A stretch of DNA of 32,000 nt, taken from the NCBI RefSeq assembly GCF_900289195.1, contig NZ_OMOH01000004.1, positions 90,001 to 122,000 of the forward strand, written 5' to 3'. Below, piece by piece: positions 8,645 through 30,596 of this stretch. The DNA comes from Propionibacterium ruminifibrarum. Its GTDB lineage: Bacteria; Actinomycetota; Actinomycetes; Propionibacteriales; Propionibacteriaceae. How positions within the stretch are numbered: position 1 is the first letter of the stretch; every line of letters begins with the position of its first letter. The notes beneath the pieces were generated by a model that did not search any database, was not told the DNA's origin, and saw nothing but the letters and a program-made list of their open reading frames with translations. Position numbers and translations under genes: made by a program.

Positions 8645-8775
8645 GACACAGAGCCTATCCGGGCCCGACGGCAGGGCACGTTTCCCGGGCCGGGCCGACC
8701 GTGCGCCGGGACTCCGGGAATTCCCCGAGACGTTCCCGGGCCAGCGAGCCGACGAGGGACATGCGGCACCGGGGG

Positions 8776-8806
8776 TTGACAGTGACGTTGCGTCACCTGC
8801 TGGGGT
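8776..8806 (+). promoter_or_regulatory. MerR-type promoter/operator candidate (19-bp spacer with dyad), possibly leaderless
   Basis: TTGACA (8776-8781). Perfect dyad GTGACG-TTG-CGTCAC (8782-8796) inside a 19-nt spacer. Weak -10-like TGGGGT (8801-8806). The merR-like ATG is at 8813, 7 nt after the -10. Confidence 0.45.
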
Positions 8807-8812
8807 GGATGC

Positions 8813-9670: not shown

Positions 9671-9681
9671 CGACACCGACG

Positions 9682-10584: not shown

Positions 10585-12254
10585 GCACCACGGTGAATCC
10601 GACCCCGACCGTCCACGACGCCGCACCGCGCCGGCCGGTGACGCGGCCGGGCCGGACCGGCCCGCTACGGGGGCTGGGACCGTCGGTGCGCCTGCTGCTG
10701 CGACGCCTGCGGGTGCAGGTACTCGCCTGGACCCTGCCCCTGTGGCTGCTGGTCGCCGCGACACCCCCGGCCTACGAGGACGTCTACCCCTCGCTGCAGG
10801 AGCGGGAACTGCTCGTGCAGAGCATGCGCGACACGGCGGGCACCCGGCTGCTCTACGGCGTCCTGCCGCTGCCCGGACGGATCGGGCAGCTCGTCCAGTG
10901 GGAGACGGGCACCTATCTGCTGATCTGCGCGGCCCTCATGGCGATCCTGCTCACCTGCCGGTCGATGCGCGCCGATGAGGACGACGGCCTGGTCGAGGTG
11001 CAGCGCGGCAGCGGCGTCGGCCATTTGGTGCCCTTCATTGCACCCGTCCTCGTGGTCTGGGGCGCGGTCGCCCTGTTCGCGGGCGGGGCGGGTCTCGTCC
11101 TCACCGTTCTGACCGGCTCCGTGACGGAGCTGACCGTCCCCGGGGCCTGGGCGCTGGCCGGCGCCATCGCGGTGACGGGCTGGGCCTTCGCCGCACTGGC
11201 GGCCCTGGCCTGCCAGCTGTGCCGGCAGACGGGTCCGGCCCGGGGGCTCGCCCTGGCCGCGCTGGGCTGCTCCTTCGCGCTGCGGGTACTGGCCGACGAG
11301 TCCGAGACCGGCCGGCTGCGCTGGTTCACGCCCCTGGCGTGGCGCGACCTCGTCCGCCCCTACAGCGACGACCGTGTCTGGCCGCTGGCCGTGTGCGCCG
11401 GTGCCTGCGTCCTGCTGACCGTCGTGGCGGCGCGGCTGTTCGCGCGCCGGGAGTACCTGGGCGGCTATCTGCCCGACCGCAGCTCGTCGCGTCGACGCTG
11501 GCGGCTGAGCGGATACCCCGATCTGCAGGCGCGCCTGGCGCTGCGCGCCATGGCGGCGTGGTCGGTGACCGTGGCGGCGGCGTCTGCCCTGTTCGGCGCG
11601 ATGGCGTCCAGCATCACCGAGCTGTTCGCACCGGACTCGGCGACCAGCTCCTACGTCGAGAAGATGGCGAGCGGCAGCCCGGTCGAGCAGTTCATGGAGC
11701 TGCTCACCATCATGACCGTACTGCTCGTCGCGGTGGCGGGCGCGCAGCGGGTGAACGCCCTGGCCGCCGACGAGCGGGCCGGTCTCGTGGAGTTCGAGGC
11801 CTCCGTCGGGGGTTCACGTGCCCGGATGTTCGTGGCGCAGGCGGGCGTGGCCGTCGTGGAGTCGGTCGTCCTGCTGGCGCTCTCGGGCGCGGTGTTGGCG
11901 GCCATGACGGGCACCCAGTTCACCGACGACCACGCCGTGGGGCGCGCCTTCGTGTTCACGGTGAGCCAGCTGCCCGGCGTCCTGGCGACGATCGGCATCG
12001 CGCTGGCGCTGGTCGGCCTGGCACCGCGCCTGTCCGCGCTCGTCTGGGCGGTCGTGGGATGGAGCGTCTTCGCGCAGTTCTTCGGCGGGCTCGTCGAGCT
12101 GCCCGACTGGGCGCAGGACCTCAGCGTGCTCGGCCACCACCTCGACGTCGTCGGTGACCCGGACTGGGGCCCGCTGGCCGTGCAGGCGACGATCGGGATC
12201 GCCGGCGCACTCATCGGCCTGCTCGCCTACCGGCGCCGCGACCTGGCCCGGTGA
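10581..12254 (+). CDS. ABC-2 type exporter permease, about 12 TM (polyketide/antibiotic exporter-like)
   Basis: 557 aa, strongly hydrophobic throughout. ATGA overlap with the upstream ATPase gene. Size and pairing resemble the large fused ABC-2 drug exporter permeases; the family assignment is tentative. Confidence 0.7.
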   Translation: MSTTVNPTPTVHDAAPRRPVTRPGRTGPLRGLGPSVRLLLRRLRVQVLAWTLPLWLLVAATPPAYEDVYPSLQERELLVQSMRDTAGTRLLYGVLPLPGRIGQLVQWETGTYLLICAALMAILLTCRSMRADEDDGLVEVQRGSGVGHLVPFIAPVLVVWGAVALFAGGAGLVLTVLTGSVTELTVPGAWALAGAIAVTGWAFAALAALACQLCRQTGPARGLALAALGCSFALRVLADESETGRLRWFTPLAWRDLVRPYSDDRVWPLAVCAGACVLLTVVAARLFARREYLGGYLPDRSSSRRRWRLSGYPDLQARLALRAMAAWSVTVAAASALFGAMASSITELFAPDSATSSYVEKMASGSPVEQFMELLTIMTVLLVAVAGAQRVNALAADERAGLVEFEASVGGSRARMFVAQAGVAVVESVVLLALSGAVLAAMTGTQFTDDHAVGRAFVFTVSQLPGVLATIGIALALVGLAPRLSALVWAVVGWSVFAQFFGGLVELPDWAQDLSVLGHHLDVVGDPDWGPLAVQATIGIAGALIGLLAYRRRDLAR

Positions 12255-14025: not shown

Positions 14026-14866
14026 GGCGATCCGCGCCCATGGCTTGGGCTTCACCTACCGCGGCGCCCCGCAGCCCGCGCTCGAAGACGTCGATCTGGC
14101 TGTGGCCGCGGGCGAGATCATCGGCCTTCTCGGGCCGAGCGGCGCCGGGAAGTCGACGCTGCAGCGCGTGCTGACCGGCCTGCTCACCGGGTACCGGGGC
14201 TCGGCCCGCATCCTCGGACGGGAGATCTCGGGATGGGGACGCGGGGTCTACGAACGGATCGGCGTGGCCTTCGAGACACCCGTGGCATTCGGGCGACTCA
14301 CCCTGCGCGAGAACCTGGCCTACACCGCCCACCTGTACTCCGGGCCGACCCGCGATCCGCAGGAACTGCTCGACGCGGTCGGTCTCGCCGAGGACGCCGG
14401 CACCCGGGCGGCGCACCTGAGCAAGGGCATGGGGGTGCGTCTCAACGTGGCCCGTGCGCTCCTGCACGACCCCGAACTCGTCTTCCTCGACGAACCCACC
14501 TCGGGTCTGGATCCGGTGCGGGCCCACCGCATGGCACGGCTCATCGCCGCCGAGCGCGCACGGGGCTGCACCGTCGTCGTCACCACCCATGACATGGACC
14601 TGGCCAGGCGCGCCTGCGACCGGGTCGGCTTCATCGTCGAGGGCAGGCTCGTCGAGATCGGCGAGCCGGACGCACTGTGCCGCCGTCACGGTTCACGACA
14701 GGTCCGTGTCACCTGGGACGACGGCGAGGCCCTGTTCCCGCTGGACGGTCTTGCCGCGGACGAGGGCTTCCGCGAGACGCTGCGCACCCGGCGCATCCAC
14801 ACGATTCACTCCCGCGAAGCCGACCTGGCCGAGGTCTTCGCGGCCGTCACGGGACGAGAGCTGTGA
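14018..14866 (+). CDS. ABC transporter ATP-binding protein
   Basis: 282 aa from the GTG at 14018, overlapping the tetR end by 8 nt. Walker A GPSGAGKST, signature LSKGMGVR, Walker B LVFLDEPTSGLD. Confidence 0.85.
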   Translation: MTEAIRAHGLGFTYRGAPQPALEDVDLAVAAGEIIGLLGPSGAGKSTLQRVLTGLLTGYRGSARILGREISGWGRGVYERIGVAFETPVAFGRLTLRENLAYTAHLYSGPTRDPQELLDAVGLAEDAGTRAAHLSKGMGVRLNVARALLHDPELVFLDEPTSGLDPVRAHRMARLIAAERARGCTVVVTTHDMDLARRACDRVGFIVEGRLVEIGEPDALCRRHGSRQVRVTWDDGEALFPLDGLAADEGFRETLRTRRIHTIHSREADLAEVFAAVTGREL

Positions 14867-14871
14867 CAGTC

Positions 14872-15606
14872 ATGGGCGCAGACCGGCACGGGCCAGCAGC
14901 CGCCATGAGGCGCAGCGCGGCCACTCTCGTCCTCGATCTTCGCAGGCATGCCCAGGAGGGCTTCTGGCTCGTCGCCCTGCTCACCGGGTTGACCGTGGCC
15001 GCCCTCCTGTCTCCTCTCGCCGCGGACCTGGTCCGGTGGTGGCCGGTGATCGTCCTGGGGGAGCTGACCATCACGTCCTTCTACTTCGCCGCGGTCCAGG
15101 TCCTGCAGGAGCGCAACGAGGGGACCCTCGCCGCCCGGGCGGTCAGCCCGCTGAGAGCCTGGGAGTACCTGACGGCTCTGGTGGTCTCCCTGGCTCTGCT
15201 CTCCCTGGCCGAGGTGACCGTGCTGGTGCTCGTCCTCCACGGTCCACTGGCGCTCTGGCCCGCCCTGGCCGTCGGGGTCGGCCTCGTCTCCTGCGTCTAC
15301 ACCCTCTACGGTGTCGTCGCGGTTGCCGGCTACGAGTCGATCGGCGCCTTCCTGCTGCCCTCCGGGGCGTGGACGCTCGTGCTCAGCCTGCCTCTGTTGC
15401 CGCTCATCGGCGGGCCGGGCGGGTGGTGGCTGTGGCTGCACCCGCTCCAGCCGGCCGTCGTCCTGATCGACGTGGCATTCGGGGCCGCCCCGTCCTCGGC
15501 CGCCGCGCCCTGCCTGCCCCTCGGCGCCGCGTGGTGCGCAGGACTGGGCGGACTCGCCAGGCACCGGCTCCGCCGGGCCGTCACGCCGGCGGGGGCACGC
15601 GGATGA
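14872..15606 (+). CDS. ABC-2 type transporter permease, small subunit 1
   Basis: About 244 aa, multi-TM. An alternative GTG at 14863 forms a GTGA overlap with the ATPase stop. The ATPase-plus-two-small-permeases layout resembles the M. tuberculosis Rv2688c-Rv2686c fluoroquinolone exporter; this comparison is from memory. Confidence 0.7.
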   Translation: MGADRHGPAAAMRRSAATLVLDLRRHAQEGFWLVALLTGLTVAALLSPLAADLVRWWPVIVLGELTITSFYFAAVQVLQERNEGTLAARAVSPLRAWEYLTALVVSLALLSLAEVTVLVLVLHGPLALWPALAVGVGLVSCVYTLYGVVAVAGYESIGAFLLPSGAWTLVLSLPLLPLIGGPGGWWLWLHPLQPAVVLIDVAFGAAPSSAAAPCLPLGAAWCAGLGGLARHRLRRAVTPAGARG

Positions 15607-16337
15607 GGCCCCGTACCGTACTGGGCCTGCTGCCGGCCGATCTGGCCCGCCTTGCCCGGGACGAGCTGCTCGCATGGATGCCCGCGGTTCCCGTCATCAT
15701 GGCCCTGGCGGTCCGACTCGGCGCCTCACCGGTCCTCGCGGCGCTCGGTCTTCGCGCGGAACTCGCGCAGGAGTGGTCCGCCCGCATCGACGTGACCGCC
15801 TTCGGGATCGTCGTCCCGGTGCTCATCGGGACGGTCGTCGGTTTCATGCTGCTGGGCGAGAAGGAGGATCGGGTGTGGGACGCGCTGGCGGTGACGCCGG
15901 TGTCGCTGCGCGGCTACCTGGCGTGGCGGGCGGCGGGTGCGTCGCTCGTTGCGGTTGGGGCGTGCGCGATGTGCCTGAGGATCGGGGGTCTCAACGACCT
16001 GGGCATCGCCCGGGTCTGCGGTGTCGCCCTGGCCGCCGCTCCCCTGGCCGGGGCGACCGCGCTGGGGCTCGCCTGCTGGACGACGGACACCGTCCAGGGG
16101 TTCGCCGCCGTCAAGCTGTCCCTCGTCGTCCTCATCCTGCCCGCCGTATTGCCCGGCGCGGGCATCGGCGGGTGGCTGCTCGCCGTGGTCCCGAGCTGGT
16201 GGCCCGCGCGGGCGTACCGGGAGTTCGCCGCCGGGAACGCCTCAGCGCCCGCTTGGGCCGCGGGATCGATACTGGTATGTGGCGCAGTGGCCGGGACGGC
16301 CCTGCGGCGAATCACCCGGCACGGCGCCCCGCGGTGA
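15603..16337 (+). CDS. ABC-2 type transporter permease, small subunit 2
   Basis: 244 aa, multi-TM. ATGA overlap with the preceding permease gene. Confidence 0.7.
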   Translation: MRPRTVLGLLPADLARLARDELLAWMPAVPVIMALAVRLGASPVLAALGLRAELAQEWSARIDVTAFGIVVPVLIGTVVGFMLLGEKEDRVWDALAVTPVSLRGYLAWRAAGASLVAVGACAMCLRIGGLNDLGIARVCGVALAAAPLAGATALGLACWTTDTVQGFAAVKLSLVVLILPAVLPGAGIGGWLLAVVPSWWPARAYREFAAGNASAPAWAAGSILVCGAVAGTALRRITRHGAPR

Positions 16338-20176: not shown

Positions 20177-20512
20177 CTCTGTTTCCCCTCAATGGTCGGC
20201 AATGACTACTCGGGGGTGCCTCGCATGACTCTAGCCATCAGCCGGGAGCGAACACATCCCACCATGGTCTGAACGTGGGTCAGACCCGGCGACGAGCCGA
20301 TCGCGCGTGGCGGCGAGATGGGCGGTCTGCCCCGGCATCGCTCAGCTGAGCCGGGAGCACAGGCGTCCGCTCTCGGACCGGGCCGAACCGCCACGGCGGG
20401 CAGACGATCCATGAGTCCCAGCCGCGTGGTGGTCGCCCCGCGATTGGGGCGGCGCCCGGCCGGGCCGTACTCGTCACAGCTGCGGCGCCCTGCCGGGCGC
20501 CGCCGAGCCTCT

Positions 20513-20977
20513 TCACCCCCTGGACCACCTGCGGGGCAGCCCGGGAATGGGAATGAACCACAGCCGCAGGGACGAGGGGCCCAGCAGCGACAGGTCGGCG
20601 GGCGCGTCGGGGCTCAAGCGTCTGGGACGGTAGTAGCCCCGCGTCTCGCACTGGGCGCGCCGGGGATGGCTCGCCCACCACCAGTCCGGCACCGTTCCCG
20701 TCCTGACCCGTCGTGGGGCGGGCATGCCCCTGCGCGGGGAGTAGATCTGACGGGCGGCGGGCTCGTCGAGGCCGCGGGCCGCCGAACGGGCCACGCCCAG
20801 GCCCCATGCGTGGAGCCCGCGCTTCTCGGTCGCGGCGACCTCGCCGGTGCCGGACGCGGCGGCTCGGGCGGGCTGGGCTCTGGCCGCCCACGACTCGGGT
20901 TCCTCCGGCCCGCCCTCACCCGCGTGACCGGCCTCGTCCGGCGTCGGTTGCCTCCCACGGCCGCTCTCAGCACACAT
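20513..20977 (-). CDS. hypothetical protein (weakly supported ORF)
   Basis: 154 aa. ATG preceded by AGGAG with a 6-nt spacer. GC3 is high by eye (roughly 85%). The composition is R/G/A/P/W-rich and no motif was recognised. It overlaps two other minus-frame ORFs. Confidence 0.3.
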   Translation of the reverse strand: MCAESGRGRQPTPDEAGHAGEGGPEEPESWAARAQPARAAASGTGEVAATEKRGLHAWGLGVARSAARGLDEPAARQIYSPRRGMPAPRRVRTGTVPDWWWASHPRRAQCETRGYYRPRRLSPDAPADLSLLGPSSLRLWFIPIPGLPRRWSRG

Positions 20978-21094
20978 GCGCCACTCCTGTCCTGAACCCG
21001 CCGGACAAGACTACGACCATGGGCCCCTGTCCGGTGACGCGGCACGCGAGTCATTGCCCTCGCCGAGCGGGGGCGAGGGCCGAGCGTGAGCGGC

Positions 21095-22315
21095 TCACCG
21101 ACCGGACTCCTCGTCCGACCGCTGCTCGGCCCAGTGCCCCAGATCCGCACCCTCGATGGCTGCCGCGATGAGCTCGGGGAAGGCGTCGGGTGTGCAGCCG
21201 AAGGCGGGCACCCCGAGCGCCGCCAGTTCGGCGGCGGCCGACCTGTTGTATGAGGGGACGCCGTCGTCGCTCAGTGCCAGCAGCGCGATCATCGTGGCGC
21301 CGTCGGCCCGGATCTGCCGCGCCTGGTCGATCATGCGCTCGGGGCGGGCGTCGTACAGGTCGCTGATGAGGATGACGACGGCGTCGGAAGGCCTGGTGAT
21401 GGAGCGCCGGCAGTACTCGAGGGCCGGGGCGGTGTCGGTGCCGCCGCCGAGCTGGGCGCCGAAGATCACGTCGACGGGATCGCTGAGCATCGAGGTGAGG
21501 TCGGCGATGTCGGTGCTGTAGGCCACCAGGTGCGTGCGCAGCGCGCTGATCGAGGCCATGACGCCCGCCATGATCGAGGCGTAGACCACCGAGGAGGCCA
21601 TCGACCCGGACTGGTCGAGGCAGATGACGAACTCGCGTTGGACGCCGCGGTGCCTGCGCCCATAGCCGACGAGCCGTTCGGGCACGATGGTGCGCTGCTC
21701 GGGCAGGTAGTTCTTGAGGTTGGCGGCGATGGTACGGCCCCAGTCGATGTCGCTCGGGCGCGGCCGCGCGGTGCGGTTGGCCCGGTCGAGCGCGCCGTGC
21801 ACCGACTGGCGCATGCGGTTGGCGATGCGTTCGGCCACCTGCTCGGCCACCGTGTTCACCACCTGGCGGGCCGTCTGCTTCGACTCCTCGGGGATCACTG
21901 ACGACAACCGGGCGAGGGTGGCCACCAGGTGCACGTCGGGTTCGAGGGTTTCGAGGATCTCGGGCTGGGCCAGCATCGCCGCCAGACCGAATCGCTCGAT
22001 GGCGTCGTTCTGCATGACCTGCACCACCCGGTTGGGGAAGTAGCGCCGGATGTCACCCAGCCAGGCCGCCACGGACGGCATGGCGGACTCGAGCCCGCCG
22101 CGCCCGGCCCTTCTCCGGCCGGCCTGCCCATCCTCGTCACCGACGTCGTAGAGCCGTGCCAGCGCGCGGTCCATGGCGCGCTGTTCCACGGTCAGCACCT
22201 CGTTGCTCCTGGCCCCGCCGGTGCTGTCCGTGCCGAGCATGAGCCGCCAGCGCTGTTCGGCGCTGATCGGCCCGGAGCCGGTCTGCTGGTCTCCCGCCGC
22301 CGGTGCCGTGCTCAT
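21095..22315 (-). CDS. vWA domain protein, CoxE-like (cluster gene 5)
   Basis: 406 aa from the ATG at 22315 (ATGA overlap with the upstream gene). The C-terminal vWA domain has a complete MIDAS motif: VICLDQSGSM (DxSxS), GGGTD, LISD. Helical N-terminal region. Confidence 0.85.
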   Translation of the reverse strand: MSTAPAAGDQQTGSGPISAEQRWRLMLGTDSTGGARSNEVLTVEQRAMDRALARLYDVGDEDGQAGRRRAGRGGLESAMPSVAAWLGDIRRYFPNRVVQVMQNDAIERFGLAAMLAQPEILETLEPDVHLVATLARLSSVIPEESKQTARQVVNTVAEQVAERIANRMRQSVHGALDRANRTARPRPSDIDWGRTIAANLKNYLPEQRTIVPERLVGYGRRHRGVQREFVICLDQSGSMASSVVYASIMAGVMASISALRTHLVAYSTDIADLTSMLSDPVDVIFGAQLGGGTDTAPALEYCRRSITRPSDAVVILISDLYDARPERMIDQARQIRADGATMIALLALSDDGVPSYNRSAAAELAALGVPAFGCTPDAFPELIAAAIEGADLGHWAEQRSDEESGR

Positions 22316-24630
22316 CGTCCGCCTCCCAGGATCGCGCCGACCGTTTCCAGGACCGGGCCCGCGTGCAGCAGGTCCTCCGCCGCCTCGGCGGCGTGCGTCT
22401 GCGGATCGCCCAGGTGCGCCACCCGGCCGGCCAGCATCCGGCGTTCGGCGGTGGACCATGTGCCGAAGGCCCGCCGCAGCGCCGGCAGGACGCGGCGGAA
22501 GGCCTCATCGGGGATGTCGGTGGCCCATTCGTCGATGACGGTGAGGAGCTGGCGGTCCTCGAGCAGGAGCAGGGCGCTGCCGGCGAGGAAGCCCTCGATC
22601 CAGTGGGCCTGGCGCTCCGGTTCGGCACCGGGCGACAGTGCCCTGCCCAGGCGACGGGCCGCCTCGTCGGCGGTGAGACGGCCGGCGTCGAGCAGGAGAC
22701 GCACGATGCGCCCGGACAGCAGGCCGGGCAGGGTCCTCGAGGCGAGCAGGGAGCGCAGCGTGTCGTGCCACAGCCGGCCGGACCGCTCGTCGAGCAGGGC
22801 GACGACGCCCTGGACGTCGTCGATGGCCCGGCGCAGCGTCTCGGCGGCGTCCTCGCTCGTGCCGGAGGCCGCGGCCGGCAGGCCGGCGCAGGCGCGTGTC
22901 AGCACGGTCTGCGCCACGGCGCCCAGCGCCCGGGTGTCGGTGCCGCGCACGTCGCCGTAGCGCATGCTCCTGGCCAGGGCTGGGATCGACTGCAGCAGGT
23001 GCAGGACGTCCGGTTCTCCGGCGGCCCGCTCGTCGAGGGTGGCCAGCAGCTCGGGCAGCACCTCGCCGAGGTCGGCGAGCAGGGCCTGCTCGACGGCGGC
23101 GGTCACCTCGGGCAGCGTCGAGGTCCGGGTGAGCAGCGCGTTGCCCGCGGCCGATGCCACGGTGTTGCCGAAGGCCGCGGCCTCGATGACGGCCACGGAG
23201 AACTCGGGGTCCCACAGCAGCTCCCAGGCCTCCTTGAAGGTGCCGGTGCCGCGGGCGCTGCCCTGCTTGCCCCAGTCGATGCCGAGGATGGCGAGGCGGC
23301 GCAGCAGCCGGGACTTCGCCAGGTCGTTCGGCTTGCGCAGGTCGAGGGTGATGGTCCGCTTCGTGGCACTCATGGTCAGGCGCAGGCTGCGGGCGGTGGC
23401 CCGCAGGTCCGCGTCGAGGGGCACCATGGGCACGCCCGGCGGCACCTCGCCGAGCGCCTGGCCGACGACCACCTCGCGGGTCACCAGATCCGCCTGGACG
23501 CTGCTGCCCGCGCACAGCACCGACCAGGTGGCCTCACTCACCTCGGCGAGCCCCGGCTGGGGGCGCCCGCGCAGCGCGGCGAGGGCGTCGGCGAGGCGGG
23601 AGGCCTCGATGACGTGGGCGGAGGAGACGGGCAGGTCGTGTTCGCGCATCGACCTGGCCACGAGGGTGAACCACCGCGCGACGGGTTCGTCGGGCGCGGT
23701 GAACAGGTGGTGGTACCAGCCCGGGGAGTCGATGCCGGCCCCGTAGCCGCTGACGGTGGCGAGCCGGCCGTGGGTCCAGGGCACCCAGGTGAGGGCGGTC
23801 TTCACCTTGGGGAGGCCCTTGAGCAGGGCGTTGTCGGCCTTGAGCGTGGGCGCCGGGCCGGCCAGGGCCGGTGCGTGCCAGGCCCCGCAGACCACGGCGA
23901 CCCGTTCGTGGCCGCGCCGCCTGGCGGCCCTGAGCACCTTGCGCATGTGGGCCTCGCGGCGCAGGGTGCGCGGATCGGTCTCGGGCGTGGCCTCGCGCAG
24001 CAGACCGATGGCCTCGGTGAGGTCGTCGAAGGGATCCCCCGTGCTGCGCAGTTCCACCGCGTCCTCCCACCAGGCCTCCGGGTCGTCGTAGCCGGCGATC
24101 CGCGCCAGTTCCGCGATGGGGTCGGTGCGGTGGCCGGCCCGTGGGTCCTCCTCGGGCGCCTCCCCGGCCGGTCCTTCGGGGTCGTCGGTGAGCCGGTCGG
24201 CCCCGGCCTCGGGAAGCTCCCCGTCGGCCGGTACCTGGCCCTGCGCGTCGTCCGGATCGGGTTCGTCCGGGTCCTGCCGGCCGGTGGCGGCGAGTGTCAT
24301 GGCGGCGGGCAGGTCCATGAAGTGGGTCTCGGCGCCGTTGCGGGTGGCCCAGCCCAACGCCTGCCACTCCGGCGAGAACACGGCCATCGGCCAGAACGCG
24401 GCGTTGGCGGGACGATCGGTCTGCCAGGCCAGCAGCGCCACGGGCGGCCTCATGACGGGGTCGGCGACCCACTCGATGAGCTTGTCAGCGTCGGCGGGCC
24501 CCTCGATGAGCACGCAGTCCGGGGCGTAGGCGTCGAGCGCGGCCGCGAGGGCGCGGGCGGACCCGGGGCCGTGGTGGCGCACCCCGAAGACCCGTACCGG
24601 CGGGGGCGCCGCGGCCTCGGCGCTGCTCAC
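22312..24630 (-). CDS. large uncharacterized protein, DUF5682-like (cluster gene 4)
   Basis: 772 aa with a GTG start at 24630 (GTGA overlap with the AAA gene stop). N-terminus VRVFGVRHHGPGSARALAAALDAYAPDCVLIEGPAD. High GC3 over the whole length. The DUF name comes from memory of annotations of similar actinobacterial clusters and is unverified. Confidence 0.75.
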   Translation of the reverse strand: MSSAEAAAPPPVRVFGVRHHGPGSARALAAALDAYAPDCVLIEGPADADKLIEWVADPVMRPPVALLAWQTDRPANAAFWPMAVFSPEWQALGWATRNGAETHFMDLPAAMTLAATGRQDPDEPDPDDAQGQVPADGELPEAGADRLTDDPEGPAGEAPEEDPRAGHRTDPIAELARIAGYDDPEAWWEDAVELRSTGDPFDDLTEAIGLLREATPETDPRTLRREAHMRKVLRAARRRGHERVAVVCGAWHAPALAGPAPTLKADNALLKGLPKVKTALTWVPWTHGRLATVSGYGAGIDSPGWYHHLFTAPDEPVARWFTLVARSMREHDLPVSSAHVIEASRLADALAALRGRPQPGLAEVSEATWSVLCAGSSVQADLVTREVVVGQALGEVPPGVPMVPLDADLRATARSLRLTMSATKRTITLDLRKPNDLAKSRLLRRLAILGIDWGKQGSARGTGTFKEAWELLWDPEFSVAVIEAAAFGNTVASAAGNALLTRTSTLPEVTAAVEQALLADLGEVLPELLATLDERAAGEPDVLHLLQSIPALARSMRYGDVRGTDTRALGAVAQTVLTRACAGLPAAASGTSEDAAETLRRAIDDVQGVVALLDERSGRLWHDTLRSLLASRTLPGLLSGRIVRLLLDAGRLTADEAARRLGRALSPGAEPERQAHWIEGFLAGSALLLLEDRQLLTVIDEWATDIPDEAFRRVLPALRRAFGTWSTAERRMLAGRVAHLGDPQTHAAEAAEDLLHAGPVLETVGAILGGGR

Positions 24631-25718
24631 TCGTCCACCTCGCGGCAGGCGCGGTAGAAGTCGGCCCAGTCGGGGCGCTCGCGCACCACGGTCTCGAGGT
24701 ACTCGGTCCAGACGGCCCGGTCCGACACCGGGTCGGAGACGACGGCGCCGAGGATGCCGGCGGCCACGTCCCTGGGGCGCAGCACGCCGTCGCCGAAGTG
24801 GGCGCTCATGGCCAGCCCGTTCGTCACCACCGAGATGGCCTCGGCGGTGGACAGCGTGCCCGAGGGGCTCTTGAGGCTCGTCGCCCCGTCCTCGGTGGCG
24901 CCCTGGCGCAGTTCGCGGAACACGGTGACGACGCGGCGGATCTCGTCGACCGCCTGGTCGGCGGGCGGCAGCTGGAGGGCCGAGCCGAGGTCCCGGACGC
25001 GGCGGGTGACGATCGTCACCTCCTCCTCGGCGGAGGCCGGCAGCGGGAGCACCACCGTGTTGAAGCGGCGGCGCAGGGCCGAGGACAGGTCGTTGACGCC
25101 CCGGTCGCGGTCGTTGGCTGTGGCGATGAGGTTGAAGCCGCCGCGGGCCTGCACCTCGCTGCCCAGCTCGGGCACGGGCAGGGTCTTCTCGCTGAGCACG
25201 GTGATGAGGGCGTCCTGGACGTCGGAGGGCATGCGGGTGAGTTCCTCGACGCGGGCGATGCGGCCCGAACCCATGGCCTCCATGACGGGCGAGGGCACGA
25301 GTGCGGCCTGCGAGGGGCCCTCGGCGATGAGCCGGGCGTAGTTCCAGCCGTAGCGGACGGCCTCCTCGGTAGTGCCAGCGGTGCCCTGGACGAGCAGCGT
25401 GGACGTGCCGCTGATGGCGGCGGCGAGGTGTTCACTCACCCACGACTTGGCGGTGCCGGGCACGCCGAGGAGCAGCAGGGCGCGGTCGGTGACCAGGGTG
25501 GCGACGGCGATCTCGGCGAGCCGCCGGTTGCCGACGTACTTGGGCGTGATGACGGTGCCGTCGCCCAGCGTGCCGCCCATGAGGTAGGTGACGACGGCCC
25601 AGGGCGAGAGCCGCCAGTTGGCGGGTCTCGGCCGGTCGTCCACGGCGGCCAGGGCGGCCAGCTCGCCGGCGTAGCGCTGCTCGGCGTGGGGGCGCAGGAG
25701 GGTGGTCTGGGTGTTCAT
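24627..25718 (-). CDS. AAA+ ATPase, MoxR/AAA_5 type (cluster gene 3)
   Basis: 363 aa from the ATG at 25718 (ATGA overlap). Walker A LLLLGVPGTAKS, Walker B-like RIARVEELTR, sensor-1 NLIATAN, SSALRRRF (Arg finger region). Confidence 0.85.
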   Translation of the reverse strand: MNTQTTLLRPHAEQRYAGELAALAAVDDRPRPANWRLSPWAVVTYLMGGTLGDGTVITPKYVGNRRLAEIAVATLVTDRALLLLGVPGTAKSWVSEHLAAAISGTSTLLVQGTAGTTEEAVRYGWNYARLIAEGPSQAALVPSPVMEAMGSGRIARVEELTRMPSDVQDALITVLSEKTLPVPELGSEVQARGGFNLIATANDRDRGVNDLSSALRRRFNTVVLPLPASAEEEVTIVTRRVRDLGSALQLPPADQAVDEIRRVVTVFRELRQGATEDGATSLKSPSGTLSTAEAISVVTNGLAMSAHFGDGVLRPRDVAAGILGAVVSDPVSDRAVWTEYLETVVRERPDWADFYRACREVDE

Positions 25719-27178
25719 GTGGTCTCCTCGTCGATGATCCGGGTGAGTTCCTGGCGTCCGCGCAGATGGCTCAGTGCCTGCTCGATGCCCCGAGTGTTCT
25801 GCTTGGGGGCGACCGGGACGGCCTCGAGCAGGGACAGCGCCTCGGGGATCAGCTCCGCCGGGGTGTCCTGCGCCATGACCCAGCACAGCTCGAACAGCTC
25901 GAGCCCCATCCGCTGAGTCGAGGACCAGGCGGTTGCCTCGGCGACCCGGTGCAGCATCGCCCGGGACAGTGGCCGTGGCCAGAAGCGCCCACGGAACCTG
26001 GCGAGGGTGGGCGTGTCGAACAGTTCCAGGATGAGCTGCTCACGCCGGCCCGCGCCGAGGACGTCGAGGAGCTCGCTGGGCTCGGGGCGGGCCCTGAGAA
26101 GGGCCTCTGCCAACTCCGCGTCATGGAACTTGTGGGCAGACCTCTTGAGCGCGTCCTGGAACGCCTCGCTGATGTCGGCACCCTCGAGGAGCACGTGGGC
26201 GGACGCGAGTTCGGTGGTGGACAGGCCGATGAGCCCCGCCAGGCGGCGGGACGGCACCCGACTCACCGCCAGCTGCAGCCGCGTGACCGGCATCGGCGTG
26301 CCGAAGCCGTGCTCCCAGTCGTAGCCGTCGCGGATGAGCTCGTCGGTCGGCTCGATCGGCGTGCCGTCGATCACGGGGGGATCGGGCGGGCCCGCGCTGA
26401 CTTCCAGGTGTGTTTTGAGCAGTTCCTCGGCCTGCCGGACAGTCCTCGAACCCTTGATCGAGCTCAAGAGCTCGGCTGCGACCCACCGGACGTGTGCGTC
26501 CTCGTCGTCGAGGAGGGCCTCGAGATGGGGTTCGTCGTCGGGACCGAGCCCGACCGACATCTTCTTCAGCATCAAACTGCGTATCTTCGACTCCTCGCCC
26601 AGCCAGGTGCCGTCGGCGAGCAGGGTCCAGGCTGCCGTGGGGTCATCGCGTCGCACCTGCCCGAGGTAGTCGACGCGTTGCCAGGGCGTGCCCTCGTCCC
26701 ACAGCGCACGACCGGACTTCGGGATGTCCAGGCCCGGTCTGTCGGTGTCGAACAGGGCGCGGGCCCTGTCGTCCATGATCACGTGGGCGCGGTCGGGCGT
26801 GGGAAGGGAGTTCAGCACGCGCAGCAGCAGGTCGGGCGGCAGGGTCCAGCCCTGGGCACCGACCATGCTCAGGGTCTCGTGAAACAGCTTGCGCCGCGCC
26901 TGGTCGCCGAACAGGCGGCGGACTCTCGTCTCCAGATGTGGCGGCAGCACCTCGCGGGTGGCCGGGGGGAGCCCGAGCGGACGGGCCCGCGGAGAGGAGC
27001 CGATCCGGGCGCGGTGCGCGACCGCGTAGGCCGCAGCGGCGTCGAGTGCCAGGTCTGTGGTCGTGGCCGAGTCCTCGGCCAGGGCCGACCGCACCTCTGG
27101 TTCGAGGCCGTCGGCGGTGAGGGGCCGGGTTCCCAGCCCCACCGTCGCGCACCGCACCAGCTCGTCGAAGCCGTTCAC
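25715..27178 (-). CDS. uncharacterized helical-repeat protein, DUF5691-like (cluster gene 2)
   Basis: 487 aa from the GTG at 27178 (GTGA overlap with the SWIM gene stop). The ORF-track N-terminal extension to 27655 overlaps the SWIM gene out of frame and is R/P-rich. Contains a HEAT-like segment LLDDEDAHVRWVAAELL. The DUF name is from memory and unverified. Confidence 0.7.
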   Translation of the reverse strand: MNGFDELVRCATVGLGTRPLTADGLEPEVRSALAEDSATTTDLALDAAAAYAVAHRARIGSSPRARPLGLPPATREVLPPHLETRVRRLFGDQARRKLFHETLSMVGAQGWTLPPDLLLRVLNSLPTPDRAHVIMDDRARALFDTDRPGLDIPKSGRALWDEGTPWQRVDYLGQVRRDDPTAAWTLLADGTWLGEESKIRSLMLKKMSVGLGPDDEPHLEALLDDEDAHVRWVAAELLSSIKGSRTVRQAEELLKTHLEVSAGPPDPPVIDGTPIEPTDELIRDGYDWEHGFGTPMPVTRLQLAVSRVPSRRLAGLIGLSTTELASAHVLLEGADISEAFQDALKRSAHKFHDAELAEALLRARPEPSELLDVLGAGRREQLILELFDTPTLARFRGRFWPRPLSRAMLHRVAEATAWSSTQRMGLELFELCWVMAQDTPAELIPEALSLLEAVPVAPKQNTRGIEQALSHLRGRQELTRIIDEETT

Positions 27179-28527
27179 AGCGACCTCACCCGCCCGCCGT
27201 CGAGGACGCTCAGGGGCCGCAGCCCCTCGGTGGAGAGTTCGCCGAATGCGACGAGGTCGTCGCGACCCGCCGCCAGGGCGAGCCTGCGCAGGCCCACGAG
27301 GCCGCCGACGAGCGGCAGCGCCCCGTCGTCGTCGCTCAGGGCGTAGCTGCCCGAGTCGTCGACGGCCAGGCGTCCGGCGACGAGCACCGGGTGGTTCTCG
27401 GTCCACGGGTCGAGGGCCACCGCGTCCCGCCACGCCACGCGTGCCGCGGCGGTGCCGACCGGCTGGGGCTGCCAGGACAGCGGCTGGGGCTCGCGCTGCG
27501 AGGAGAGGGCGCAGCGCAGCTGGCCGCGGCCCGGGTAGGGGTGGGTGCTGGCTTCCACCTGCTGGCCGGGGAACAGGTCGGCCGGAAGCGCCACGTGGTT
27601 CGCCGCGAAGGACAGCTGGAGCGCCCAGCGGCCGGTCCGCCGGCCGAGCAGCCACACGCGGCGCGCGACGACCCGACCCTCCTTGCTGTCACGCATGCCA
27701 AGGACGGCCCAAGTGTCCTCGATGCCGGGGCCCGCGAGGACGTCCTCGACGTGCACCGGCACGCCGAGGTGGGAGCGGACGGTGGCCGCGACGTCCTCGG
27801 GCAGTTCGGCGCGGCGCTGCCAGGCTCTGGTCAGCAGCCGCATCATGCCGAACCCTTCGACGACGGCGGCGGGCCAGCCGGGTGTGGCGTCGCTGACGTC
27901 GGCGAGCGCGGTGAGCCGGGTGGCCATGCCTGGGGCCTGGGCGTCGACCATCCGGGCGGCCATGTCGCGCAGCTCGTCGCGGCGGTGCGTGCCGGCCCTG
28001 GCCAGCCCCTCGTGCAGCTGGTCACCGAGCCAGCGGTCGAGATCGGCGAGCCCGTCGGTGATGCGCTGCTCGCGGCGGGCGGCCCGCGCCTCGGCGTCGG
28101 CCCTCTGCTCGGCGGAGCGTTCGCTCCTGGAGGTCTTGGCGGCCGCTTTCGTGGCACGGTCGGCCCGGCGCCTGCGCCATTCCTCGGCGAAGTCGGCGGG
28201 CTCGGCCGGCTCGACCTCGCCCTGGCTCCACAGGTGGAGCAGGGCGACGGCGTGCTTGCAGGGGAACTTGCGGCTCGGGCAGGAGCACTTGTAGGCGGGG
28301 CCCGACAGGTCGACGCACACCTGGTAGGGCTTCTTGCCCGATCCCTGGCACAGGCCCCACAGCAGGGCTTCGGAGACACCGAGCCCGGGCCACCGATCCG
28401 GCACGGCCAGTTTGAGACCCGCCCTGGTCGTCTGGGCGTCGGGGGCCTGCGCGTCGATGCGCTCGGTCGTCCATCGTTCGATGGCGGGGGTGCTCATGGA
28501 TGCCACCCTAACGGAGCCCTCCGACAC
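27175..28527 (-). CDS. SWIM zinc finger protein (cluster gene 1)
   Basis: 450 aa from a GTG at 28527; an alternative ATG at 28497 gives MSTPAIERW. SWIM signature CSCPSRKFPCKH (CxCx6CxH, nt 28252-28287). Followed by a highly charged R/A/E-rich segment. Confidence 0.85.
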   Translation of the reverse strand: MSEGSVRVASMSTPAIERWTTERIDAQAPDAQTTRAGLKLAVPDRWPGLGVSEALLWGLCQGSGKKPYQVCVDLSGPAYKCSCPSRKFPCKHAVALLHLWSQGEVEPAEPADFAEEWRRRRADRATKAAAKTSRSERSAEQRADAEARAARREQRITDGLADLDRWLGDQLHEGLARAGTHRRDELRDMAARMVDAQAPGMATRLTALADVSDATPGWPAAVVEGFGMMRLLTRAWQRRAELPEDVAATVRSHLGVPVHVEDVLAGPGIEDTWAVLGMRDSKEGRVVARRVWLLGRRTGRWALQLSFAANHVALPADLFPGQQVEASTHPYPGRGQLRCALSSQREPQPLSWQPQPVGTAAARVAWRDAVALDPWTENHPVLVAGRLAVDDSGSYALSDDDGALPLVGGLVGLRRLALAAGRDDLVAFGELSTEGLRPLSVLDGGRVRSL

Positions 28528-28687: not shown

Positions 28688-29269
28688 TCAGTCCCCCAGG
28701 GCCGCGATGGCTCGGGCGCAGGCGGCGGTGGCGTCGTCGATCCAGTCGGGAATCGGCCCGCCCAGGTGAGGACGCACCAGCCCGTAGGGGCACTGTCTGG
28801 TGGCCGTGGTCAGCAGCGTGGTCCGCCACTCATCGGCGACTCCGTAGCGTCTGCGTGTCAGTTCGAGCGAGAGGGCGTTGACCTGATCGTTGACGGTCGC
28901 CACCTCGTCTCGCAGGGACTCGGGGGCGGCACGGACCAGCTCGGCCTGCCGATAAAGCGTCATGGCTCGCGCCTCGGCCGGATGCTCACGGCAGTAGACC
29001 GGGATGTGCCGTGCCGCGGCCACGACGGCGTCGGCTGCCGGCTCCAGGCGGCAGGCCGCCATGAAGCCCTGCTGGAAGTCGCGCACGGAGCGCAGCCAGA
29101 GGCTGACGAGCAGCTCGTCCCGTGAGGCGAAGCGGTAGTAGACCGAGCCGACGGGCGCCCCGACCTCGCGGGCGATCTCCGCGACCGGCGGGCTCCCTGA
29201 GCGTGTGAGAACGACTCGGGCGGCGGCATCGAGGATGTCATCGGCGCTGAACTTCACCGGCCTTGCCAC
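28688..29269 (-). CDS. TetR/AcrR family transcriptional regulator
   Basis: 193 aa. HTH PVAEIAREVGAPVGSVYYRFASRDELL. Divergent from a membrane protein gene, and 160 nt upstream of the five-gene cluster on the same strand. Confidence 0.85.
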   Translation of the reverse strand: MARPVKFSADDILDAAARVVLTRSGSPPVAEIAREVGAPVGSVYYRFASRDELLVSLWLRSVRDFQQGFMAACRLEPAADAVVAAARHIPVYCREHPAEARAMTLYRQAELVRAAPESLRDEVATVNDQVNALSLELTRRRYGVADEWRTTLLTTATRQCPYGLVRPHLGGPIPDWIDDATAACARAIAALGD

Positions 29270-29291
29270 GGTCCGAAGTGTACAAGGACAA

Positions 29292-29311
29292 TTTAGAACA
29301 TGGATTCTAAA
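29292..29311. promoter_or_regulatory. AT-rich inverted repeat in the tetR/membrane-protein divergent region (operator candidate)
   Basis: TTTAGAA-CATGGA-TTCTAAA, perfect 7-bp arms. It spans the ATG (29300) of the membrane protein gene. Confidence 0.5.
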
Positions 29312-30001
29312 ACTGTTTCGCAGGCAGCGACCACGGGCCGCCGACCGCAGCGCTGGGCGACAATCGCCTGCTGGACCGCCTTCTGTTCGGTGCTGCCCTC
29401 AGCGGCATGGCGCCTGGCGATGCTCGCCGGCGTGGATACCGGATTCGGATATGCGCAGTTCTACCGCGACGGCGGCGCAATGACGGCCTATGTGCTGAGG
29501 CTGGAGGCGATTCAGCTCGGCGCCGCGGCACTGTGCCTGGGCCTGTGCCATTCGTGGGGCGAACGGGTGCCGCGGTGGGTGCCGGGAATCGGCGGGCGCG
29601 TGATCCCCCGCTCGCTGCCCGTCGCGATCGGCGGACTGGGCGACGCGATGCTGTACGCGATCATCGGTAGCACGGCGGCCAGGTTCGCCAGCAGGTGGAT
29701 GGGGATGTCAGTGGGGCTGACGCCCACCGATGGCATGAGCTCGGGCGCGGTCACCGTCCTGGCCCTCGCCTACGCCCCCATGCTCATCTGGCCCGTCGCG
29801 CTGACTGTTGCCCTGGTGGGCTACTGGAGGCGGCGCTCGCCACGCGCGCACCGACATGCGCCGCCTGGTGATCGTCGAAGGGGACGGGCCGATGAGACGG
29901 GAGAGGACGACGCCGACCGGAGACCGAGCTCTGCCCATCGGGCGTCTGACGCGTCGCCGCGGCGGCCGGAACAGGGGGACCATGAAGAAAACCATGGATG
30001 A
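29300..30001 (+). CDS. hypothetical membrane protein
   Basis: 233-aa ORF with about 5 hydrophobic segments in the first 175 aa. The R-rich C-terminal 55 aa have lower GC3 and may be read-through rather than genuine protein. No family assigned. Confidence 0.55.
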   Translation: MDSKTVSQAATTGRRPQRWATIACWTAFCSVLPSAAWRLAMLAGVDTGFGYAQFYRDGGAMTAYVLRLEAIQLGAAALCLGLCHSWGERVPRWVPGIGGRVIPRSLPVAIGGLGDAMLYAIIGSTAARFASRWMGMSVGLTPTDGMSSGAVTVLALAYAPMLIWPVALTVALVGYWRRRSPRAHRHAPPGDRRRGRADETGEDDADRRPSSAHRASDASPRRPEQGDHEENHG

Positions 30002-30596
30002 CTACTGGAACCACAACACCGCGTACCACCGGTGGATCCTGCGCACCGTCGAACGGCAGGGGCACCGCGACGTCCTCGACGTCGGCTGCGGCGAGGGGCT
30101 GCTGCTGCAGCGGCTGGCGCCCCTGGTGTCGACCGTCACCGGTGTTGAACCGGATGCGGAGGCCCTAGAGAGGGCCCGGGTACGCCTCGCCGGGCTGCCC
30201 ACCGCGCGCCTCGTCCCGGACCGGTTCGAGCAGGCCGCTCTGGACGAGGCGGGCTACGACCTCATCACCTTCGTCGCGAGCCTGCACCACATGGAGCCCC
30301 GGCGGGCGCTGAGCCGTGCGGCGCGGCTGCTCAGGCCCGGCGGTGACCTGCTGGTGGTCGGCCTGGCGGCGAATCGCAGCCCGGTGGACTGGGCGTTCAG
30401 TGCCCTGACACTGCCGGCCGCCAGGATCGGCTCACTGGCGCATCACGAGACCCGCGACATCGGCGTGCCGGTCGCCGAACCCCCGGAGGACCTGCGCGAG
30501 ATCCGCCGGACGGCCGGGGAACTCCTGCCCGGCGCGCGGATCAGGCGGGGCCTGTACTACCGCTACCTACTGCGCTGGACGAGACCCGCCGACTGA
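29982..30596 (+). CDS. class I SAM-dependent methyltransferase
   Basis: 204 aa from the ATG at 29982, with RBS-like AGGGGGA upstream. Motif I VLDVGCGEGLL; post-I and motif IV-like LRPGGDLLVVG. The start is uncertain because the in-frame ORF extends up to 29808. Confidence 0.75.
   Translation: MKKTMDDYWNHNTAYHRWILRTVERQGHRDVLDVGCGEGLLLQRLAPLVSTVTGVEPDAEALERARVRLAGLPTARLVPDRFEQAALDEAGYDLITFVASLHHMEPRRALSRAARLLRPGGDLLVVGLAANRSPVDWAFSALTLPAARIGSLAHHETRDIGVPVAEPPEDLREIRRTAGELLPGARIRRGLYYRYLLRWTRPAD

Follow-up and report, generated by a model that had tools for sequence, protein, structure and literature searches.

A conserved five-gene module of SWIM, DUF5691, MoxR, DUF5682 and vWA proteins in Propionibacterium ruminifibrarum is an uncharacterised variant of the MoxR-vWA systems

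Pairs of a MoxR-type ATPase of the AAA+ class (ATPases associated with diverse cellular activities) and a protein with a von Willebrand factor A (vWA) domain rank among the AAA+ systems that are most widely distributed and least well understood. Here we analyse a five-gene cluster of Propionibacterium ruminifibrarum (28527..21095, minus strand) that encodes such a pair; coordinates refer to the window, that is, the entire analysed stretch of 32,000 nucleotides (nt) from contig NZ_OMOH01000004.1 (positions 90,001-122,000), unless another locus is named. The cluster is an uncharacterised variant of the MoxR-vWA systems that, in addition to the ATPase and the vWA protein, includes a SWIM zinc-finger protein, a DUF5691 protein and a large DUF5682 protein, three components found in no characterised system. 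The Propionibacterium locus is one more orthologue of this module, not a new kind.

The families involved are already catalogued, as Pfam DUF5682 (PF18934) and DUF5691 (PF18944), as RefSeq product names and as the YehL subfamily of MoxR ATPases, so that 'undescribed', the term used in an earlier note made from this DNA sequence alone, means unstudied. Indeed, literature searches on DUF5682, DUF5691, the yeh genes of Escherichia coli and SWIM together with vWA returned no functional study and no paper containing DUF5682. The present analysis recasts the five genes as an architecture, in which a constrained core of an ATPase, a protein with a metal ion-dependent adhesion site (MIDAS) and a predicted TIKI-fold protein is combined with a variable, sometimes fused, putative SWIM-HEAT receptor.

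Conservation of the five-gene module

The cluster consists of the genes for the SWIM zinc-finger protein (28527..27175; 450 amino acids (aa); Pfam SWIM, PF04434, E = 3.9e-6), the DUF5691 protein (27178..25715; 487 aa; Pfam DUF5691, E = 3.6e-51), a MoxR-type AAA+ ATPase of the AAA_5 family and YehL subfamily (25718..24627; 363 aa; Pfam E = 5e-38), the DUF5682 protein (24630..22312; 772 aa; Pfam DUF5682, E = 1e-260) and a CoxE-type vWA protein (22315..21095; 406 aa; Pfam VWA_CoxE, E = 2.5e-44), all on the minus strand. The earlier note had described five co-directional genes without intergenic space and left the strand unnamed; the open reading frames (ORFs) are found exactly as described, and each of the four junctions is a 4-nt start/stop overlap, either GTGA or ATGA. 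All five genes show the textbook coding signature for a genome with 71% guanine plus cytosine (GC), with a GC fraction of 0.89-0.97 at the third codon position (GC3) and about 0.5 at the second (GC2). A search of the coding strand within the cluster found no promoter-like or terminator-like sites. A metagenome-assembled genome (MAG) of Propionibacteriaceae encodes the closest protein match, at 98% identity. The Pfam search that the note had proposed as a check placed all five proteins above the curated cut-offs (SWIM, 26.7 bits against a gathering cut-off of 19.6; DUF5691, 175.6 bits; AAA_5, 130.6 bits against 22; DUF5682, 867.4 bits; VWA_CoxE, 151.8 bits against 26.4), and the matches of DUF5691 (profile positions 1-489 of 491) and DUF5682 (1-727 of 727) are full-length. 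NCBIfam contains no specific model for any of the five proteins.

To map the distribution of the module, we scanned one genome per species with a pattern search that yielded at least 600 stretches, at least 594 of which encode relatives of the module, and examined the best 80; at the protein level, the relatives comprise at least 8000 clusters. Iterative profile searches of six-frame ORFs then provided a census of 68 loci with enough flanking sequence to be judged. All five families are present in 65 of these 68 loci, which span at least six phyla and include Actinomycetota, Chloroflexota, Gemmatimonadota, the gammaproteobacterium Thiolinea and cyanobacteria. This shared co-occurrence puts the arrangement far beyond chance. 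The actinomycete-type unit is also found on a Deinococcus plasmid and a Rhizobium chromid, where the RefSeq labels match the SWIM / DUF5691 / AAA / DUF5682 / VWA set that the note had named and that Pfam identifies here.

The layout of the module varies at one end. The genes are colinear, as in Propionibacterium, in 32 census loci, and colinear with a truncated DUF5691 in another 5; in 13 loci, which belong to Nocardia and to the Actinoplanes/Phytohabitans/Symbioplanes group, SWIM and DUF5691 are fused in a single frame; and in 15 Streptomyces loci, the SWIM-DUF5691 pair is divergent from the ATPase-DUF5682-vWA genes. The in-frame fusions imply that the SWIM and DUF5691 proteins act together. 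The fusion is a single polypeptide of about 950 aa that occurs in 15 loci altogether, 13 of them complete and 2 on short contigs (L011, L016, L021, L023, L032, L035, L036, L046, L047, L055, L056, L059, L066, L073 and L075). DUF5691 proteins trimmed to the equivalent of the N-terminal 150-170 residues of the profile are encoded in an uncultured group of Actinomycetota and in one Microlunatus genome (L004, L018, L020, L026, L037 and L043). In a common set of 57 loci, the mean pairwise identity is 0.78 for MoxR, 0.67 for vWA, 0.55 for DUF5682, 0.45 for SWIM and 0.36 for DUF5691, the quickest-evolving subunit. By this gradient, the core of the module is constrained and the SWIM/DUF5691 end is variable.

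Three census loci depart from the pattern. In Acaryochloris (L076) and in an uncultured bacterium (L077), DUF5682 is isolated: no gene for MoxR, vWA, SWIM or DUF5691 lies within 10 kilobases (kb), and the neighbours are unrelated, namely, methyltransferase, hydrolase, acyltransferase, GGDEF-EAL and histidine-kinase genes. The Rivularia locus (L072) has no detectable vWA gene; there, a Uma2-family endonuclease gene (9304-9888 of that locus) separates the ATPase gene from that for DUF5682, and a vWA gene is missing downstream. In one Chloroflexia MAG (L060), the DUF5691 and vWA genes are broken up into several ORFs, a sign of decay or of errors in assembly.

Between Actinomycetota and the loci of Gemmatimonadota, Chloroflexota and Gammaproteobacteria (L015, L052, L060, L062), the MoxR proteins are 67-77% identical, compared with 41% identity to E. 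coli YehL, which suggests that the whole actinomycete-type unit was transferred at times; the copies on megaplasmids are consistent with horizontal movement of the entire unit. A search for a conserved sixth gene or client gene in the flanks of the best 80 loci detected only the synteny of the Streptomyces lineage (pcrA ... sucCD).

The resemblance to the E. coli yehLMPQ genes, mentioned in the note, holds for three of the four. In E. coli K-12, the order is yehI (DUF4132), yehK, yehL (MoxR), yehM (DUF5682), yehP (vWA) and yehQ (SWIM). The Propionibacterium MoxR protein is 41% identical to YehL over 361 residues (E = 9e-76), and the DUF5682 and vWA proteins are homologous over nearly the full length to YehM (27% identity, E = 1e-38) and YehP (31% identity, E = 3e-66), respectively. 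The SWIM protein shares with YehQ the finger alone, by sequence, Pfam and hhalign; hhalign detected no relation between the SWIM family and YehQ or YehI, nor between DUF5691 and YehI, YehQ or YehK. Both loci have the ATPase-DUF5682-vWA order, with overlapping or near-abutting genes, and in both, the core is joined by a SWIM protein and a large helical protein and is chromosomal and stably inherited. In contrast to the Propionibacterium cluster, where the SWIM gene leads the operon, the E. coli SWIM gene follows the vWA gene, and DUF4132 (YehI, 1210 aa) stands in place of DUF5691. The E. coli-type layout is also present on the Iodobacter plasmid pl1 (two DUF4132 genes, AAA, DUF5682, vWA and SWIM, plus one extra hypothetical gene). 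Because the ordered core is shared and the SWIM and helical partners differ, these are two types of module, and the SWIM-DUF5691-AAA-DUF5682-vWA layout is a type distinct from that of E. coli.

YehL is the type member of a recognised MoxR subfamily without an assigned function, listed as one of seven to nine MoxR branches (PMC3893208; PMC11432383). Of 5426 complete E. coli genomes, 5333 (98%) have a single, chromosomal copy of the DUF5682 gene yehM. With the module in nearly every E. coli genome, this is a blind spot in a model organism.

The constrained core and the SWIM-DUF5691 end

The motifs quoted in the earlier note for the SWIM protein, the ATPase and the vWA protein are all present in the translations. 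In the MoxR protein, Walker A is GVPGTAKS (residues 85-92; 25443..25466, minus strand), followed by the Walker B-like ARVEEL (residues 155-160; 25239..25256, minus strand), the sensor-1 motif LIATAN (residues 197-202) and the arginine-finger region ALRRRF (residues 214-219). Walker A, sensor-1 and the arginine-finger region are invariant in 76 homologues, and so is the acidic pair of Walker B, which is Glu-Glu (E158, E159) and not the usual Asp-Glu; the Walker B of E. coli YehL, VRFEEITR, likewise has Glu-Glu, so this pair could be a signature of the YehL subfamily. Across the 76 loci, 200 of the 363 columns of MoxR are at least 93% identical. Among solved structures, the nearest by sequence are the AAA modules of Midasin (E = 3e-14) and NorQ (E = 1e-6).

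The vWA protein consists of a conserved N-terminal region (residues 20-165) and the vWA domain (165-380). The MIDAS is complete: the DxSxS element is DQSGS (residues 234-238; 21602..21616, minus strand), joined by T293 (in GGGTD, at 290) and D319 (in ISD, at 317), and D234, S236, S238, T293 and D319 are each at least 93% conserved in the 76 homologues. A sequence search against the chains of the PDB found no relative of the vWA protein.

The start of the SWIM gene is either the GTG at 28527 or the ATG at 28497 (440 aa), leaving the 5' end uncertain by 30 nt; the ATG is preceded by a Shine-Dalgarno-like GGGTGG, and the homologues align only from about residue 13. The protein includes an N-terminal beta region with the finger, a charged linker (approximately residues 105-165) and a C-terminal domain without a known family. 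The CxCx6CxH motif is CSCPSRKFPCKH (residues 81-92; 28252..28287, minus strand), and its ligands C81, C83, C90 and H92 are invariant in sets of 32 and 70 homologues. All 32 family members scanned with Pfam match SWIM alone; in the Propionibacterium protein's C-terminal region, Pfam at E up to 10 gave no further domain, and neither the sequence nor the family profile found a relative among PDB chains.

The HEAT-like repeat reported in the note for the 487-aa DUF5691 protein (residues 216-256, LDDEDAHVRWVAAELL...; 26411..26533, minus strand) fares differently here and in the family. In this protein, it remains below the Pfam cut-off (HEAT/HEAT_2, E = 0.005-0.006), whereas HEAT recurs in 6 of 28 family members, with the best E of 1e-6; the Pfam scan of these 28 homologues detected DUF5691 and HEAT only. 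Designed alphaRep HEAT proteins were the sole PDB matches to DUF5691 (E = 1e-4 to 3e-5), and residues D215, L219, D225, A234 and L238 are invariant in the family. No relation among the three non-enzyme families of the module was detected by hhalign.

The DUF5682 protein was modelled confidently with AlphaFold2 using 62 homologues, with a predicted local distance difference test score (pLDDT) of 86 and a predicted template modelling score (pTM) of 0.81. The model consists of an alpha/beta N-terminal domain (N-domain; residues ~10-300; 23731..24603, minus strand), a mixed middle region and a C-terminal alpha-solenoid (residues ~477-767; 22330..23202, minus strand) that is helix-only at high pLDDT. 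A disordered acidic loop interrupts the N-domain (residues 109-169; 24124..24306, minus strand; pLDDT <50), with 17 D/E and 4 K/R residues; in 82 homologues, this loop is 15-101 residues long, with a median net charge of -5. In YehM of E. coli, the loop is short and likewise acidic (SEEEDDSPDTQD). The invariant motifs of the N-domain are G16-x-R18-H19-H20, E43-G-P, S86-P-E88-W, D106-L-P, R225-E226 and C248-G-x-x-H252, and the four hallmark motifs among them are unchanged from the Propionibacterium locus to E. coli.

By sequence, neither the DUF5682 protein nor its family profile has a relative among PDB chains, and the separated N- and C-halves yielded no extra domain in Pfam at E up to 10. 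A Foldseek search of the PDB with the full-length DUF5682 model produced weak matches to helical repeats only, all at E >1e-3 and including ZSWIM8 (E = 0.01), and is uninformative. The N-domain was therefore modelled alone (residues 1-335; pLDDT 81). Among the predicted viral structures of the BFVD database, this model had one significant Foldseek match (E = 2.3e-4, probability 1.00; 289 columns, template modelling score 0.42 on the target), which is the 'TraB family protein' from a marseillevirus; the next match is at E = 2.3. In the PDB, the top three matches are one subunit of the Tetrahymena complex IV, 7w5z_E (E = 0.015, 325 columns), a weak similarity, and an erythromycin-esterase-like protein (2rad_B) appears lower in the list (E = 3.7). 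The Tetrahymena complex IV has been reported to contain a TraB-family protein (PMC10060162).

An hhalign comparison of the N-domain with a diverse TraB/GumN alignment of 92 representatives (P = 0.004-0.017) covers both domains and brings the four hallmark motifs into register; a low-diversity YbaP alignment gave nothing. The motif pairs are G-x-R-H-H of DUF5682 with G-x-x-H of TraB/GumN, L-I-E-G-P with V-V-E-a-D, R-E-A-x-M with R-N-x-x-w, and V-V-C-G-A-W-H with V-V-G-A-l-H. In this alignment, H19/H20, E43, R225-E226 and H252 of DUF5682 correspond to G38xxH41, E67, R228-N229 and G249xxH252, respectively, which are invariant columns of TraB/GumN. Active enzymes of the TIKI superfamily have a site of two histidines and two glutamates along with a conserved basic residue (PMC6254334). 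We conclude that, in its predicted structure, the DUF5682 N-domain has a TIKI/TraB-type fold, and judging from the motif alignment, it probably keeps the TIKI catalytic set as a candidate site. The label 'TraB/Tiki-like', which the note had attached to the large protein, is accordingly backed by the fold match and the in-register motifs and is not backed by the profile statistics. We also considered a histidine-phosphatase reading of the R-H-H-G motif and rejected it, given that the Foldseek matches to Sts-1/2 are local, with probability of at most 0.16.

A possible mechanism and its alternatives

Translational coupling, cross-phylum conservation and the SWIM-DUF5691 fusions all argue for a multi-subunit machine. 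We tentatively favour the possibility, which we would put somewhat below an even chance, that a YehL-type MoxR hexamer with its MIDAS adaptor gates or loads a TIKI-fold hydrolase that is targeted by a SWIM-HEAT receptor. The five gene products would then form a single cytoplasmic, ATP-driven complex of three modules. The ATP-dependent core for remodelling or gating would consist, like that of other MoxR-vWA pairs, of the MoxR ring with the vWA/MIDAS adaptor; DUF5682, a putative TIKI/TraB-fold hydrolase domain on an alpha-solenoid scaffold, would be the dedicated partner of this core; and SWIM with the HEAT-like DUF5691 would be a two-part, sometimes fused receptor that represents the fast-evolving, target-selecting end of the complex. 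In the cycle we envisage, the receptor would bind a cellular target encoded elsewhere in the genome, the MoxR-vWA core would spend ATP on switching DUF5682 to an active state or on feeding the target to it, and a peptide or ester bond would be cleaved at the TIKI-type site. As a conjecture, the acidic DUF5682 loop could serve as a ligand of the MIDAS or of the pore.

Because no conserved client gene lies nearby, DUF5682 is the sole universally linked candidate partner of the MoxR-vWA pair and so would be either its effector or its client. What rests on observation is the set of genes with its coupling, conservation, homologies and fusions, along with the fold match and the invariant motifs; we infer the physical assembly of the complex, the assignment of client or effector status, the hydrolase activity and the target. 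The key candidate residues are H19/H20, E43, R225 and H252 of DUF5682, E158/E159 of Walker B and D234 of the MIDAS. Should the hydrolase reading be correct, a MoxR-vWA pair would for the first time be linked to an enzyme of the TIKI family.

Several considerations weigh against this scheme. The characterised MoxR-vWA systems mostly mature metal centres, we know of none that controls a hydrolase, and TIKI-fold proteins can be non-enzymatic. The Foldseek search of the PDB with the N-domain returned no match at E <=1e-3, and comparison of 7w5z_E with YbaP and a TraB/GumN profile did not establish this chain as a member of the TraB family. The Pfam TraB model (PF01963) does not match DUF5682 at E up to 10, and hhalign of the N-domain with TraB/GumN families gave probabilities of 0.2%, 8% and 2.7%.

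A broader version of the hydrolase scheme, which we regard as unlikely, is that the module is an unrecognised machine for ATP-dependent regulated hydrolysis, in which a TIKI-fold peptidase is loaded or switched by the MoxR ring together with the MIDAS adaptor and the SWIM-HEAT receptor picks the substrate. Its target would be universal, for example a protein-nucleic-acid complex that has stalled or been damaged. The architecture of such a receptor loosely resembles the eukaryotic ZSWIM substrate receptors. If this were true, the module would be a protease system under AAA+ control but without a chamber, unlike Clp, Lon, FtsH and HslUV, present also in E. coli K-12, and the YehL subfamily would gain its first assigned function.

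The strongest alternative, possible in our view but doubtful, is a chaperone for insertion of a metal centre or cofactor, on the model of CoxD-CoxE, NorQ-NorD, CbbQ-CbbO or the CobS-CobN-CobT and BchI-BchH-BchD chelatases. DUF5682 would be a large substrate- or metal-holding subunit whose His/Glu/Cys cluster binds metal, and the MoxR-vWA pair would power the insertion into a client encoded elsewhere. The order of AAA_5, large protein and vWA genes mirrors CobS/CobN/CobT, and the invariant H19, H20, E43, E88, D106, C248 and H252 could ligate a metal. Furthermore, the vWA protein belongs to the VWA_CoxE family, NorQ is among the nearest solved relatives of the ATPase, strong conservation and core-genome status suit a housekeeping role, and all characterised MoxR-vWA pairs are maturation factors (PMC3893208, PMC7159879). 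However, in no lineage is a client enzyme gene conserved beside the module, unlike the cox, nor, cbb and gvp loci, DUF5682 shows no relation to CobN/BchH in Pfam or PDB sequence searches, the SWIM/HEAT receptor pair is left unexplained, and the motifs agree with the catalytic set known from TIKI hydrolases. If the maturation reading were true, a metallo-enzyme client would await discovery.

The earlier note had also raised the possibility of a conflict system. Under this alternative, SWIM and DUF5691 would sense a threat or invader, the MoxR-vWA pair would set the threshold, and the TIKI-fold protein would be the effector. MoxR-vWA cores with variable sensors have been proposed to be conflict systems (PMC7159879), and for one such class, Esr, sensing of epibionts has been reported in Actinomycetales (PMC13622651); the combination of a variable receptor and a conserved core in the present module fits this scheme, as does the presence of TIKI-fold domains in the bacterial toxins RRSP, PMT and HopBA1 (PMC6254334). 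In E. coli, yehL and yehM are bound by H-NS and de-repressed in hns/stpA mutants (PMC3686432). The cross-phylum identity of MoxR suggestive of whole-unit transfer counts in the same direction, and so does the Iodobacter copy (L084, 1-16238), which resides on a 77-kb mobilizable plasmid, where its neighbours encode an IS200/IS605 transposase and a restriction-modification system of type I.

The distribution of the module is nevertheless that of a chromosomal system. Relatives of DUF5682 were found in 37 of 72,556 plasmid records, mostly megaplasmids, chromids and mislabelled chromosomes, in one unverified phage scaffold and in 1 of 2.9 million viral contigs, and yehM is single-copy in nearly all E. 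coli genomes. The neighbours of the cluster in the window are ordinary metabolic, transport and housekeeping genes, the GC content of the window (68-75%) has a profile without anomaly, and synteny is stable in Streptomyces. PADLOC defence models gave nothing significant against the five proteins (three marginal matches, E = 0.004-0.007), the Pfam match to bpMoxR (26.4 bits) is under the cut-off of 27, and Pfam found no beta-propeller, STAND, kinase, FHA or toxin domain in the five proteins. The conflict-system survey makes no mention of YehL, TraB or SWIM (PMC7159879). On balance, the module behaves like a stable chromosomal cellular function and not like a mobile immunity island; the lead of the note is disfavoured by PADLOC, distribution and synteny, and we consider a conflict system improbable. 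As a separate observation, Streptomyces linear plasmids of 0.85-1.27 Mb (megabases; H11-H14) encode a second, very divergent DUF5682 paralogue (27-30% identity to the Propionibacterium protein), which hints at paralogous modules within one genome.

Less probable still is a Rea1/Midasin-like remover of assembly factors from a large ribonucleoprotein or nucleoprotein complex, with the AAA_5 ring and the MIDAS pulling the factor away, SWIM binding nucleic acid and DUF5682 acting mainly as a scaffold. Nucleic acids can be bound by SWIM fingers, the ATPase has its best solved relatives in the Midasin AAA modules, a MIDAS partner is present, and cross-phylum transfer of a self-contained unit implies that the target should be universal. 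The Midasin match, however, covers about 130 residues and is generic to AAA_5, linkage of ribosome or RNA genes to the module was seen neither in the best 80 loci nor in the Rfam and tRNA scans of the window, and the invariant catalytic-type residues of DUF5682 would be unexplained. Finally, the idea that the five genes lie side by side incidentally, without being a single functional unit, to which the three pattern-breaking loci and the divergent transcription of the Streptomyces SWIM-DUF5691 pair might lend some credence, is effectively refuted by the presence of all five families in 65 of 68 loci, the 4-nt overlaps at every junction, the in-frame fusions and the core order common to E. coli.

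Surroundings of the cluster and comparison with known systems

Downstream of the cluster, 14 nt past the vWA stop codon, lies a GC-rich hairpin (21056..21080, minus strand) with a 9-bp stem, GCCCUCGCC/GGCGAGGGC. It could mark the end of the operon without a U-tract; its fold energy is -30.2 kcal/mol, with a z of only -1.7, which is statistically not unusual for the composition. The region 20200-21090, about 900 nt from the vWA stop to an inositol-1-phosphate synthase gene, contains no convincing gene: long ORFs on either strand are without a coding GC3 signal, and a weak third-position bias is seen only at approximately 20460-20850. A 154-aa ORF that matches this bias (20513-20977) was rejected as a candidate, with no Pfam family and an implausible translation rich in Arg, Pro and Gly. 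Rfam and tRNA scans of the window found nothing, including in this gap.

Upstream of the SWIM gene, the tetR-like gene that the note had placed 160 nt away on the same strand is confirmed as a TetR-family gene (28688-29269, minus strand); it is not a conserved partner of the module. This gene is divergent to a 233-aa ORF (29300-30001, plus strand) that has no Pfam match and a weak coding signal, and a methyltransferase gene (29808-30596) lies on the same divergent side. The sole sigma-70-like site of the TetR region (29263-29292, plus strand) faces the divergent gene, so that TetR probably regulates that gene and not the five-gene operon. A dedicated TetR regulator of the five genes was accordingly rejected, TetR being not conserved beside the module and divergent to another gene. 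Elsewhere in the window, a 557-aa ORF whose match to ABC-2 permeases is weak comes after an ABC ATPase fusion gene (8701-10584; both within 8701-12254), and a 627-aa ORF within 14454-16337 has a poor coding signal and a similarly weak ABC-2 permease match; the gene calls across 8701-12254 and 14454-16337 are uncertain.

Class I chelatases (CobS-CobT-CobN; BchI-BchD-BchH) combine an AAA+ ATPase and a vWA/MIDAS subunit with a third subunit of very large size, a three-part logic like that of the present module. Unlike the chelatases, the module has no tetrapyrrole genes nearby, its DUF5682 protein is unrelated to CobN/BchH by Pfam and PDB sequence searches, and its SWIM and HEAT proteins are without counterparts. 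The TIKI/TraB/PrgY/GumN/erythromycin-esterase superfamily, which includes the Wnt protease Tiki, the Ras protease RRSP, EreA/B and ChaN, is matched by the predicted fold of the DUF5682 N-domain and by its GxxH, E, R-[EN] and GxxH motifs, which appear in like order on like secondary-structure elements. DUF5682 differs from this superfamily in its doubled histidine (R-H-H), the invariant cysteine before the second GxxH, the long acidic insert, some 470 extra residues of middle domain and alpha-solenoid, the missing match to the Pfam TraB model and the low profile-profile probability. Literature searches found no TIKI-family protein that works with a MoxR-vWA pair.

The vWA-MoxR ternary systems, of which Kaur et al. 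2020 describe VMAP, iSTAND and beta-propeller types and to which Esr is added here, likewise combine a conserved MoxR-vWA pair with more variable components, and the Esr pathway and the present module both occur in Actinomycetales and Propionibacteriales. In contrast to the island-like ternary systems, whose defining domains were not found here, the module shows core-like genomic behaviour. The characterised MoxR-vWA pairs adjoin the genes of their client enzymes, whereas the module has no conserved client beside it, and none of these pairs includes a DUF5682/TIKI-fold protein, a SWIM finger or DUF5691. The NCBIfam equivalog models of ViaA, GvpN and MadB scored 18-51 bits against cut-offs of 267-500, far below the thresholds. 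What the module does share with CoxD-CoxE, NorQ-NorD, CbbQ-CbbO and RavA-ViaA is the pairing itself: an AAA_5/MoxR ATPase with intact motifs and a CoxE-type vWA partner with a MIDAS.

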